Source: a phage. Taken from it: 64,000 nucleotides of DNA. The notes below the pieces were generated by a model. It made no database searches. It had not been told where the DNA came from and saw only the letters and a list, made by a program, of their open reading frames with translations. The position numbers and the translations under genes were made by a program. Shown piece after piece: positions 35,240 through 37,415 of this stretch (its first letter is position 1; each line of letters begins with the position of its first letter). Location: NCBI GenBank assembly GCA_036930585.1, contig GCA_036930585.1_3066.1. One strand, written 5' to 3'.

Positions 35240-35713
35240 TCATTTGATTTGTTTAGCAGACCAAATGCGGTCTTTAATAATTTTTTGGATGTCTTCAACA
35301 TACTCAAGAGAGTGAACATGTGGATTATCTTTGAAACTATAAGCACGGGCTAACTTTTGGCCTTCGGTTTTGATTACTAAAAGCTCTTTAAGGATAGCTT
35401 CATATTTGGAGATAATTCCTTTAACAATATTTTTCTCTTGTGTGACTTTAGGATCTTCTTTAGGAGCAGGTTTACCTGAAGCCTTTGCAAAAGCAGCGCC
35501 AGTAGCAACTAAACTTTTCCAGGCCATACTAACTGCATTCCCTGTAAATCCTTCGGCTTTCATATCACGAGCAAATTGGAATCGTGATTCATCGGAAGCA
35601 TCTTTATAGGAATATTTACCCGCGGCAATGGCTGCTTTTGCGACAGCTTGAATTTCGGTGCTAGATGCTTCATTTAACACCGCTTCATTTAAAAATTGAG
35701 CATATGATTTCAT
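35240..35713 (-). CDS. internal-protein-like protein with capsid targeting sequence
   Basis: 157 aa; N-terminal MKSYAQFLNEA. Confidence 0.6.
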   Translation of the reverse strand: MKSYAQFLNEAVLNEASSTEIQAVAKAAIAAGKYSYKDASDESRFQFARDMKAEGFTGNAVSMAWKSLVATGAAFAKASGKPAPKEDPKVTQEKNIVKGIISKYEAILKELLVIKTEGQKLARAYSFKDNPHVHSLEYVEDIQKIIKDRIWSAKQIK

Positions 35714-35753
35714 CTTATTTCCTGTTTTAATTCGTGGTTTTAATATACTTATT

Positions 35754-35777
35754 TATACTAAAAAGCCCCAACCTTTC
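35754..35777 (-). terminator. intrinsic terminator, copy 2 of the 34-bp repeat
   Basis: identical to copy at 35203-35235. Confidence 0.65.
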
Positions 35778-35799
35778 GGTCGGGGCTAAGCCTTGCGGC

Positions 35800-36098
35800 A
35801 ACCTTGTCGGGGTTCCACCTGCTAAGGCAAGTGTTTGTACGAAACGCCGGGATTCGAACCCGGTTATTAAGCAGTTGACGCTACTCAATATTTTTAAAAG
35901 GCCATATCTCGACCATATCCGAACGTTCCGTCAAAAACGCTACTCGGCTTACGGCAAAGATATTTCCTCGAATCGATAATTCGGTGCGCCGTTTCAGCTG
36001 TGATGTAAGGGGACATTAACAGATCGTAAAGATTTGTTAATGCCAGTCCTTACCCAGGGAACATCAGTCCGACGACTTACCGGTAGCGACCCGGTTTC
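35800..36098 (-). ncRNA. candidate stable RNA / tRNA-like remnant
   Basis: ~300 bp with no credible ORF; perfect T-arm-like motif CCGGGTTCGAATCCCGG (35846-35862) but no matching acceptor stem; lies between the tRNA cluster and a terminator. Confidence 0.3.
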
Positions 36099-36449
36099 TT
36101 AATATTCTTTTAAAGCATCAATCTGTTCACGGCGTTTACGCCATAAATTAATTACTTCATAAGCGGATTCAGCATTTCGAATTGGTCGGCATTTATATAA
36201 AGACTTGCGATTTTGATATTGTGTAGATAACGGAATTTTATCTAAAAGGTCTTTACGTTCAAAGTATTCGTAACCATCTAAGCCAAATGAACGATTTTTG
36301 AGAAATTGCCAATGACCAAATTCGTTTTGAATATAAATATAATCCGCGTGTTGATAAAGTAAATTAATTTCACGAAATGAGATATGTTTTTCATATTCAT
36401 TGAAGTAAAATGTTAAATCATGAACTACTAAATAAACATTACCTTTCAT
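36099..36449 (-). CDS. hypothetical protein
   Basis: 116-aa ORF with GAGG SD, 18 nt downstream of tRNA-Arg. Confidence 0.55.
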   Translation of the reverse strand: MKGNVYLVVHDLTFYFNEYEKHISFREINLLYQHADYIYIQNEFGHWQFLKNRSFGLDGYEYFERKDLLDKIPLSTQYQNRKSLYKCRPIRNAESAYEVINLWRKRREQIDALKEY

Positions 36450-36467: not shown

Positions 36468-36543
36468 TGGTCGAGGCAGTAGGGATCGAACCTACGACCC
36501 AGGACTTAGAAGGTCCTTGCTCTTCCTTCTGAGCTATGCCTCG
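36468..36543 (-). tRNA. tRNA-Arg (anticodon TCT)
   Basis: hand-folded cloverleaf, T-loop GGTTCGATCC, encoded CCA. Confidence 0.85.
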
Positions 36544-36547
36544 TAAT

Positions 36548-36623
36548 TGGGGTGACCGATGGGAGTCGAACCCATGACTACGAGAATCACAATCTCGAGT
36601 TCTACCAACTAAACTACGGCCAC
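36548..36623 (-). tRNA. tRNA-His (anticodon GTG)
   Basis: hand-folded; acceptor 7 bp; no encoded G-1. Confidence 0.7.
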
Positions 36624-36737
36624 ATTAATACCTACTCCAACAATCAAGATGTCTTCACACGAAATTAAGAGAAGAGTGATCAGTTCAACCCCGATAATCG
36701 CGTCAAGTAGATATTAATGTGACAATTGTCACAAATT

Positions 36738-36812
36738 TGGCGGACGTGATAGGATTCGAACCTATAACCAATCGCTTAACAGGCGATCGCTCTGCCATTG
36801 AGCTACACATCC
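36738..36812 (-). tRNA. tRNA-Asn (anticodon GTT)
   Basis: hand-folded; T-loop GGTTCGAATCC. Confidence 0.8.
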
Positions 36813-36816
36813 AAAT

Positions 36817-36903
36817 TGGTGGGGAGTGATGGAGTCGAACCACCCGAGTCGCAATGACAATGGATTTACAGTCCACACCGCTACCTCTACGGGATAACTC
36901 CCC
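36817..36903 (-). tRNA. tRNA-Tyr (anticodon GTA), long variable arm
   Basis: hand-folded; 87 nt. Confidence 0.75.
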
Positions 36904-36916
36904 TTAATTCTTAATT

Positions 36917-36991
36917 TGGTGGCCCTGGGTGGAATTGAACCACCATCTGGCGATTATGAGTCGCTTGCTTGAACCTTCCAGCTACAGGGCC
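36917..36991 (-). tRNA. tRNA with CAT anticodon (Ile2/AUA-reading or elongator Met)
   Basis: hand-folded; G1-C72 paired so not initiator. Confidence 0.75.
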
Positions 36992-36992
36992 T

Positions 36993-37068
36993 TGGTGCTG
37001 ATTGACGGAATCGAACCGCCGACCTTCTCATTACAAGTGAGTTGCTCTACCTACTGAGCTAAATCAGC
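36993..37068 (-). tRNA. tRNA-Thr (anticodon TGT)
   Basis: hand-folded. Confidence 0.85.
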
Positions 37069-37073
37069 AAAAC

Positions 37074-37163
37074 TGGCGGAGGCGATAGGATTTGAACCTA
37101 TGAGTCGCCGGAGCGACTGCCGGTTTTCAAGACCGGTGCATTAAACCACTCTGCCACACCTCC
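37074..37163 (-). tRNA. tRNA-Ser (anticodon TGA), long variable arm
   Basis: hand-folded; 90 nt. Confidence 0.8.
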
Positions 37164-37165
37164 AG

Positions 37166-37239
37166 TCTCCATACAAGGATTTGAACCTTGGACCTCCTGA
37201 TCCCAAATCAGGCGCTCTACCAAACTGAGCTACACGGAG
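37166..37239 (-). tRNA. tRNA-Pro (anticodon TGG), CCA not encoded
   Basis: hand-folded; 2-nt spacer to tRNA-Ser. Confidence 0.8.
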
Positions 37240-37249
37240 TAAATTAAAT

Positions 37250-37323
<74 letters not shown>

Positions 37324-37328
37324 AAATT

Positions 37329-37415
37329 TGGTGCGAGAAGTGGGACTCGAACCCACAAGGAAATCATTCCGCAGCATTTTAAGTGCTGTGCCTTTACCAA
37401 TTTGGCCATTCTCGC
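37329..37415 (-). tRNA. tRNA-Leu (anticodon TAA), long variable arm
   Basis: hand-folded; 87 nt. Confidence 0.8.

Follow-up and report, generated by a model that had tools for sequence, protein, structure and literature searches.

Likely orthologs of the T4 small stable RNAs rnaD and rnaC in a Tequatrovirus genome, with a covariation-supported fold for rnaC

Introduction

The small stable RNAs of bacteriophage T4, rnaC (species 1 RNA) and rnaD (species 2 RNA), are among the oldest orphan RNAs of molecular biology and were sequenced in the 1970s. In the T4 genome (NC_000866) they belong to a transfer RNA (tRNA) cluster, where tRNA-Arg, rnaD (119 nucleotides, nt), a 6-nt spacer and rnaC (139 nt) follow one another on one strand. 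One primary transcript of ~1.75 kb runs across the T4 tRNA cluster and ends after the species I gene (PMC2330249), and northern blots have detected both RNAs, which were assigned to the late class (PMC9697503). Papers of 2010 (PMC3014915), 2022 (PMC9697503) and 2025 (PMC12685909) still give them as RNAs of unknown function, and our literature searches found no functional study of either. Here we describe the corresponding locus in a 64,000-nt stretch of phage DNA (GenBank assembly GCA_036930585.1, contig GCA_036930585.1_3066.1), the whole of which we call the window and whose source is a Tequatrovirus, a T4-like phage. The locus covers positions 35800-36098 on the minus strand, for which an original prediction had offered two readings: a stable tRNA-like noncoding RNA of the T4 species 1/2 (RNA C/D) kind, or a decayed tRNA gene.

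Identity and layout of the locus

The region very probably holds orthologs of T4 rnaD and rnaC, the latter with a fold backed by covariation; this confidence covers identity and structure and does not extend to function. In global alignments, the rnaC ortholog is identical to T4 rnaC at 137 of 139 positions without a gap (98.6%), and the rnaD ortholog matches T4 rnaD (NC_000866 71053-71171) at 104 of 119 positions (87.4%). In a three-way alignment with T4 and phage Kha5h, the window is colinear with T4 from rnaD through the spacer and rnaC to the 50-nt trailer and the terminator; the Kha5h counterpart carries the annotation 'rnaC, small stable RNA; species 1 RNA' and, after it, that of a terminator. 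The first of the two original readings is borne out by these alignments and by the Kha5h annotation. When searched by BLAST against 50,697 phage records, window positions 35740-36110 matched 806 of them, nearly all from T4-like phages of Escherichia, Shigella and their relatives, at identities of up to 98.9%; the shorter query 35830-36100 reached up to 100%. Covariance model R1 finds rnaC in the window at 151.6 bits as its sole match. The position of rnaC is also the expected one, at the distal end of the tRNA transcription unit and followed by the conserved trailer and terminator, and both invariant end blocks of rnaD (5′ 35 nt and 3′ 24 nt) are present. As known T4 features, the two RNAs make no addition to the gene catalogue. 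The elements of the locus are as follows.

35983-36101, minus strand: ortholog of rnaD (species 2 RNA), with its conserved core from 36098; positions 36099-36101 are the TAA stop codon of the upstream open reading frame (ORF) and equal the first 3 nt of the T4 annotation
36079-36095, minus strand: rnaD 5′ hairpin, ACCGG-GUCGCUA-CCGGU, from the comparison of variants
35977-35982, minus strand: spacer GAAUUA between rnaD and rnaC, presumed site of endonucleolytic processing
35838-35976, minus strand: ortholog of rnaC (species 1 RNA), 139 nt, from the T4 alignment, model R1 and fold energy
35788-35837, minus strand: 3′ trailer with three small hairpins, presumably removed from the precursor
35759-35787, minus strand: intrinsic terminator, a stem-loop at 35764-35787 (10 bp, GAAA loop) and a U run at 35759-35763, annotated as a terminator in Kha5h

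Window and T4 share the order and strand of the two RNAs, the 6-nt spacer, the trailer, the terminator and the position distal to the tRNA cluster. They differ upstream: in T4, rnaD starts two bases after tRNA-Arg, whereas in the window an ORF of 116 amino acids (aa) at 36099-36449 (phrog_3355) parts the region from tRNA-Arg (36468-36543). The window carries ten minus-strand tRNA genes at 36468-37415, including those for His, Asn, Tyr and Met, and T4 has 8. The trailer is conserved even among phages without rnaC, and an A/U-rich, AAUUA-like leader also precedes rnaC in most other genera. The intrinsic terminator of the original prediction is real, with a GC-rich hairpin and UUUUU ending the unit; its stem-loop lies at 35764-35787, ~10 nt upstream of the 35754-35777 first given.

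A tRNA-shaped four-way junction in rnaC

Homologs of rnaC were gathered by BLAST, first from the window sequence and next from copies that had diverged. The comparison of 27 distinct sequences from ~10 phage genera supports a predicted fold for rnaC in the form of a conserved, tRNA-shaped four-way junction. Folding of the minus-strand RNA, a check named in the original prediction, gives rnaC this shape at a minimum free energy (MFE) of -50.2 kcal/mol (z = -4.55), and the RNAalifold consensus of a MAFFT alignment of 13 sequences is identical to the single-sequence MFE fold of the window copy. In that alignment 96.3% of cells are paired and 26 of 42 pairs have changes on both sides; none of 500 shuffles was as good, and slid controls reached 38-49%. 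Aligning all 27 sequences to model R1, a procedure that leans towards the model and with which the MAFFT result agrees, gives 96.5% of cells paired and compensatory changes in 31 of 47 pairs. The parts of the fold are listed in 5′ to 3′ order of the RNA.

35969-35975, minus strand: 5′ strand of the acceptor-like terminal stem, CGAUUCG, pairing with 35840-35846
35899-35968, minus strand: long arm, an AGG/CCU base helix and three further helices
35929-35934, minus strand: apical hexaloop of the long arm, UUGACG, putative kissing partner 1
35891-35898, minus strand: A-rich single-stranded linker, UUUAAAAA
35865-35890, minus strand: hairpin 2, a 10-bp stem with hexaloop CGUCAA (35875-35880), putative kissing partner 2
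35847-35863, minus strand: T-arm-like hairpin, CCGGG-UUCGAAU-CCCGG
35838-35846, minus strand: 3′ strand of the acceptor-like stem, CGUUUCG (35840-35846), then a UA overhang, with no CCA encoded

The perfect T-stem-loop CCGGGTTCGAATCCCGG, on which the original prediction had drawn, occurs once on the minus strand of the window and in none of 100 shuffles; its position is 35847-35863, not 35846-35862. Elsewhere in the window the motif GGTTCRANTCC is found only in genuine tRNAs. The companion claim, that this hairpin has no matching acceptor stem, does not hold: CGUUUCG, 3′ of the T arm, pairs with CGAUUCG ~130 nt upstream, and the pairing covaries. Across homologs, this terminal stem joins 5′ CG(A/G)UUCG to 3′ CGUU(U/C)CG over 7 positions, usually with a tandem U-U mismatch. 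Its third pair is G-C in most genera and A-U in T4-type phages, and in PM2 (AGGUUCG/CGAAUCU) all 7 positions are paired, the U-U mismatches having become U-A. The T-like stem of 5 bp, with the loop UUCGAAU, adjoins the 3′ strand of the terminal stem as the T stem adjoins the acceptor stem in tRNA, and its own third pair covaries as UA, GC or AU.

The long arm opens with AGG/CCU and measures 70-72 nt in every homolog, and its helices 2-5 carry compensatory changes in 19 of 22 pairs. Next come the linker of 7-10 nt and hairpin 2, which spans 25-26 nt in every homolog, with a 10-bp stem (compensatory changes in 8 of 9 counted pairs) and a hexaloop; one A stands between hairpin 2 and the T-like stem. 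Arm lengths are kept even in Karamvirus, Kanagawavirus, Marfavirus and Gelderlandvirus, whose long arms have an inner sequence with no relation to the T4 one. Immediately 5′ of the CCU strand, 23 sequences combine an unpaired GG with a T loop of the UUCRRNY type, and the four sequences with T loop UGCAU(G/U)C or UGCAUC have CG at this site, a weaker hint of what may be a tRNA-like elbow.

A tRNA-Sec-like pairing of 9 bp, ACGGAACGU with GCGUUUCGU (35923-35931 with 35839-35847), was considered and rejected; it shows no compensatory change, 500 of 500 shuffles are as good, and it is lost where the long arm is replaced. The same pairing is pairable at 84.6% over 13 homologs and competes with the terminal stem and helix 5 in T4-type, EcS1-type and PG7/SonariX-type copies, and a second rnaC conformer is possible in these lineages.

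A putative kissing contact between two hexaloops

The two hexaloops of rnaC, UUGACG in the long arm and CGUCAA in hairpin 2, are exact reverse complements. Of the 27 sequences, 22 keep both loops without change, while the stems beneath them vary freely. The four Marfavirus sequences have UUGGCG and CGCCAA instead, a compensatory change from A-U to G-C, and the loops of PM2 (GAGACG and CGUCA) keep four pairs. In all, the 6 pairs of the putative kissing helix are 99.4% paired. We infer that a six-base loop-loop contact would close the long arm and hairpin 2 into a ring. We discarded a promoter reading, with TTGACG as a -35-like element: this loop changes in concert with its partner loop in the RNA, and there is covariation in the stem below each loop as well.

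Possibly new are the fold supported by covariation, the putative loop-loop contact and the broad occurrence of rnaC within tRNA arrays. A literature search found no paper describing the fold or the kissing contact; the sequencing papers of the 1970s were outside its reach, so the fold is perhaps partly in print.

Distribution and genomic setting of rnaC

Copies of rnaC, all 138-142 nt long, were found in Tequatrovirus, Kagamiyamavirus (EcS1), Moonvirus (KM16, Moon, NM4.3), Karamvirus (KMB17, fGh-Ecl01, PG7), Kanagawavirus (PEi20, Q7622, Kosakonia phage 305), Winklervirus (Kc304, Virsaitis27), Gelderlandvirus (Melville), Mosugukvirus (PM2) and Marfavirus (MY02, Clarke), and SonariX, a 249-kb record with no genus given, has a copy identical to that of PG7. 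Outside Tequatrovirus, rnaC often stands within a tRNA array with ordinary tRNA spacing on either side. It lies between an annotated tRNA-Phe and tRNA-Trp in EcS1, and between tRNA-Trp and tRNA-Gly in Karamvirus, KM16 and Melville. Winklervirus has tRNA-Trp after rnaC and no tRNA called or annotated immediately upstream, and in PEi20, Kosakonia phage 305 and the Marfavirus phages rnaC has no directly flanking tRNAs. The 3′ 95 nt of rnaC are both annotated and called by ARAGORN as 'tRNA-Met' in PG7 (locus L017, 550-644) and SonariX (L004, 1554-1648). The tRNA-Phe annotated directly upstream of rnaC in EcS1 (L003, 1431-1502) is not called by ARAGORN. Many GenBank records of Tequatrovirus show one to three 'hypothetical protein' coding sequences drawn over rnaD and rnaC.

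The two RNAs are independent modules, since each occurs without the other in other phages. In the Dhakavirus loci examined, the same trailer and terminator come right after rnaD, and the absence of rnaC is exact to the base: CCGA runs straight into ACACUUGCC, where the window reads CCGA-AUUA-rnaC-CAA-ACACUUGCC. VR20 also has rnaD without rnaC.

A BLAST search of 5,426 complete genomes of E. coli gave no match to rnaC or rnaD, at a database size that leaves short antisense targets invisible, so that the result has no bearing on base-pairing targets. When 185,579 species genomes and JGI metagenomes were scanned by pattern and the matches filtered with model R1, there was no bacterial rnaC homolog among the matches listed, which do include at least one further Marfavirus-like copy (L354). 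Pattern scans of IMG/VR returned T4-like contigs only. A match of 25.9 bits (L334) proved to be an artefact of the search pattern.

Structure of rnaD

For rnaD we compared 16 distinct variants. The 5′ 35 nt are invariant and the 3′ 24 nt nearly so, and because the ends are invariant, covariation says little for this RNA. Two parts make up its predicted fold: the 5′ hairpin, in which the variants show a single change (A to G, in the closing pair), and a long, irregular helix that GUCGUCG/CGGCG(C)AC closes. The window copy has a folding energy of -38.5 kcal/mol (z = -2.96). One basal pair switches from U-A to A-U in 7 of the 16 sequences, and the tip of the long helix exists in three unrelated hairpin versions. 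Conservation of the ends beyond structural need suggests that they may be read by a partner.

The rnaD 5′ hairpin with its leader, AACCGGGUCGCUACCGGU (36079-36098), has its first eight bases and general shape in common with the rnaC T arm, AACCGGGUUCGAAUCCCGG (35847-35866). T4 rnaD ends in ...GCGCACC followed by A, which makes a tRNA-like ACCA, and rnaD may also be a tRNA relic. The Dhakavirus phages LQ5 and vB_EcoM_005 (L019 and L020, ~1130-1200) carry, in the interval from tRNA-Arg to rnaD, a segment of ~70 nt containing GAAGGACUGAUUACCAGCAUUCACCGGCGCAAC, which resembles a partial and degenerate rnaD copy (GGACUGAU..., ...CGGCGCAC). The 5′ hairpin was also scored as a plus-strand 'terminator-like' site in a terminator scan.

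Neighboring features

The 116-aa ORF upstream of rnaD (minus strand; PHROG 3355) is an insertion shared by Kha5h and many relatives, and T4 has no ORF there. Its TAA stop at 36099-36101 stands immediately before, or overlaps, the 5′ end of rnaD, and excision of rnaD would therefore cut the mRNA at the stop codon. Within the tRNA cluster, tRNA-Tyr (36822-36901, minus strand) scores 30.2 bits against an Rfam tRNA threshold of 29, while the other nine tRNAs score 60-74 bits. A perfect palindrome, TGTGACAATTGTCACA (36718-36733), lies in the 114-nt gap between tRNA-Asn and tRNA-His and matches both CRP half-sites, TGTGA-N6-TCACA. The window has no second site of this kind; one turns up in 11 of 100 shuffles, which makes chance a possible source. 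On the other side of the locus, an exact T4 late-promoter consensus, TATAAATA (35750-35757, minus strand), comes directly after the U run of the terminator and precedes the next gene (157 aa, 35240-35713, PHROG 2280) by ~35 nt; the terminator coordinates first proposed had overlapped it.

Expression, processing and possible role

Judging from T4, both RNAs would be cut from a tRNA-operon transcript that ends at the 35764-35787 terminator, and the enzymes that process the neighboring tRNAs would excise them. An endonucleolytic cut between rnaD and rnaC would fall in the A/U-rich spacer and leader GAAUUA, which we take to be linked to RNase E. In T4, a precursor of species 2 and species 1 is said to accumulate in RNase E mutants, and RNase III reportedly acts in the trailer. 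At the 3′ end, trimming would halt two bases past the terminal stem of rnaC. Where rnaC sits in tRNA arrays, the cuts that free the neighboring tRNAs would also free rnaC. The closed terminal stem and the compact body formed by the kissing loops would make the RNA very stable and specific. Its acceptor/T-arm face, with neither CCA nor anticodon, could engage factors that read that face while the RNA itself would not be chargeable. By this route rnaC might use, or bind and titrate, a tRNA-recognizing factor of host or phage.

The role that we would tentatively propose for rnaC, as possible rather than probable, is that of a non-chargeable accessory tRNA mimic or titrator that brings a host-dependent fitness benefit. 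A tie to the tRNA machinery is suggested because rnaC lies between tRNAs in EcS1, Karamvirus, Moonvirus and Gelderlandvirus, is followed by tRNA-Trp in Winklervirus and is called tRNA-Met in PG7 and SonariX. An accessory, host-linked role is suggested because the Dhakavirus and VR20 loci examined lack precisely rnaC, and because the same rnaD single-nucleotide polymorphism arose in all evolved lines of a T4-like phage adapting to E. coli ECOR34 (PMC12685909).

Several points weigh against this proposal. No function has been shown for either RNA (PMC3014915), and their accumulation was seen in T4, the window phage being known here from its sequence alone. Formal tests for a tRNA fail, with no above-threshold Rfam tRNA match, no ARAGORN call in the window, no CCA and no anticodon loop. 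Four homologs have a non-canonical T loop (UGCAUGC, UGCAUUC or UGCAUC), so a canonical T loop is not essential. The loop of the hairpin in the anticodon position is taken up by the kissing contact, and the RNA would make a poor decoy for anticodon nucleases. Finally, covariation in the kissing helix comes from essentially one lineage, Marfavirus, and the partial case of PM2.

Alternative explanations

Two readings can be regarded as effectively excluded. One is that the region encodes a small protein. The coding sequence would be the longest sense frame, of 40 aa (35894-36016), which a number of close relatives keep open as the window does, or another of the short frames. Its start codon shifts between ATG, TTG and GTG, no Shine-Dalgarno sequence is visible upstream, and it is truncated in T4 and lost in four of the 11 close relatives with both RNAs (L025, L027, L083 and L089). 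Since it spans the rnaD/rnaC junction, it is impossible in phages with one RNA only. Substitutions track RNA pairing and not codon position, and the mechanical ORFs of 22-81 aa in the region are not conserved. The original prediction had likewise seen no credible ORF and had named a conserved small ORF as the finding that would speak against it; comparative alignment showed none. The other is the decaying tRNA pseudogene, the second of the two original readings, to which a perfect T arm beside a tRNA cluster and a plausible origin of rnaC from a tRNA gene lend some color, as does the best tRNA-clan match of the region, a weak tRNA-Sec-like alignment at 35839-35931 (16.6 bits against a gathering score of 47). 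The 9-bp pairing behind that alignment is the one without covariation that 500 of 500 shuffles equal. Identity of 98.6% with T4, and the keeping of sequence, length and structure by many compensatory changes across ~10 genera, amount to strong purifying selection, with which decay is not compatible.

We also consider it very improbable that rnaC is a chargeable translation factor that enters the ribosome, like transfer-messenger RNA (tmRNA). It is encoded among tRNAs and has the layout of the tRNA-like domain of tmRNA, an acceptor stem and T arm with a large insertion between them; against this stand negative ARAGORN and Rfam results, the lack of G3:U70, of an encoded CCA and of a tag reading frame, an annotated 3′ end with a two-base UA overhang, and the tandem U-U in the terminal stem of most homologs. 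A two-piece tmRNA made of the rnaD 5′ and rnaC 3′ parts (GAAAC/GUUUC, a low-frequency fold of the precursor) was dropped, as the two RNAs occur separately. A role purely in cis, in which rnaC and rnaD are by-products that serve as structured spacers or as 3′ caps, guiding the processing of the tRNA precursor and blocking 3′ exonucleases, is unlikely. Co-transcription with the tRNAs, the place last before the terminator in T4-type phages and the loss of rnaC from some genera would all suit it, and T4 mutants that lose both RNAs through deletions in the tRNA region are reportedly viable on laboratory hosts, so that neither would be essential. In other genera, however, rnaC sits in the middle of arrays instead of at their 3′ ends. 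Stable accumulation of the excised RNAs is seen in T4 (PMC9697503), and a mere spacer would not preserve, over ~10 genera, its fold of 139 nt and its fixed length together with invariant loops and a tertiary contact. Self-assembly, in which pairing of the hexaloops would join separate molecules into rings or head-to-tail dimers, in the manner of phi29 pRNA or of the ROOL and GOLLD nanocages, with the assembly as the functional form, strikes us as distinctly unlikely. Two invariant, exactly complementary hexaloops with one covarying change speak for it, and the kissing loops of ROOL and GOLLD, first read from covariation as tertiary contacts, proved to be intermolecular bridges (PMC12286853). 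The strict invariance of arm lengths fits ring closure within one molecule at least as well, and a helix count gives ~21 bp for hairpin 2, the kiss and helix 5 against ~21 layers for helices 2-4 with their internal loops; moreover, rnaC is 4-6 times smaller than ROOL and GOLLD and has no Rfam resemblance to them. To our knowledge, the old gel work contains no report of multimers of species 1 RNA.

A bolder reading can be put forward, which we hold to be doubtful: rnaC could represent an undescribed class of elaborated, tRNA-derived phage RNA in the tRNA arrays of enterobacterial T4-like phages, with a 60-nt insertion in the D loop whose tip kisses the former anticodon loop. Such an RNA might act as a decoy or titrator of a tRNA-recognizing host factor, in processing, modification or tRNA-targeting immunity, or else as a self-assembling RNA like ROOL and GOLLD. 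The locus offers several experimental handles for such ideas: a four-way junction backed by covariation, a putative kissing contact of six bases for which nature supplies a compensatory variant, phages that naturally carry just rnaC or just rnaD, and the travel of rnaC inside tRNA arrays. The structural model of rnaC yields testable mutants. There is also a practical problem of annotation, with GenBank entries placing hypothetical-protein coding sequences or a 'tRNA-Met' over rnaC and rnaD and no Rfam model to catch them.

Comparison with known structured RNAs

The pRNA of phage phi29, of 120-170 nt, has two mutually complementary loops that pair between molecules into the ring of the packaging motor, and T4 packaging needs no RNA. 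It has no similarity to rnaC in sequence or fold, and its genomic context is different. ROOL and GOLLD resemble rnaC in being phage-encoded, associated with tRNA arrays, highly structured, equipped with kissing loops by covariation, and of no known function (PMC12286853). They are much larger, at 500-800 nt, with unrelated sequence and secondary structure, and their hosts are mostly Firmicutes, Actinobacteria and environmental lineages; the Rfam models for them gave no match in the region even at E <= 10. The tRNA-like domain of tmRNA shares with rnaC the retention of acceptor stem and T arm and the replacement of the rest by a large structured insertion. Unlike tmRNA, rnaC has no series of pseudoknots and is 2.5 times smaller; no tmRNA was found in the region by ARAGORN or Rfam.

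The closest likeness is to tRNA itself (RF00005). The Rfam/Infernal scan that the original prediction had proposed returned only the ten tRNAs of the window at gathering thresholds, none of them within 35700-36200, and Rfam has no family for either rnaC or rnaD; at E <= 10 the region gave only chance-level matches to mir-1302, isrK, anti-hemB and tRNA-Sec. At 139 nt, rnaC departs from tRNA in having a 60-nt hairpin in place of the D loop, a 10-bp stem with a 6-nt loop as its anticodon arm where a tRNA has a 5-bp stem and 7-nt loop, an 8-nt linker for nucleotide 26, no 8-9 linker and a tandem U-U in the acceptor stem. A cloverleaf with a D arm and an above-gathering score are accordingly not found, and in place of a 3′ CCA end the gene reads ...CGUUUCG-UA-CAA. 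What rnaC does share with tRNA is a four-way junction in which an acceptor stem of 7 positions adjoins, and is predicted to be coaxial with, a 5-bp T stem; a T loop, UUCGAAU, that fits UUCRANY; a 3-bp helix in the position of the D stem, with an adjacent unpaired GG that covaries with T-loop position 2; and its location and spacing inside tRNA arrays.

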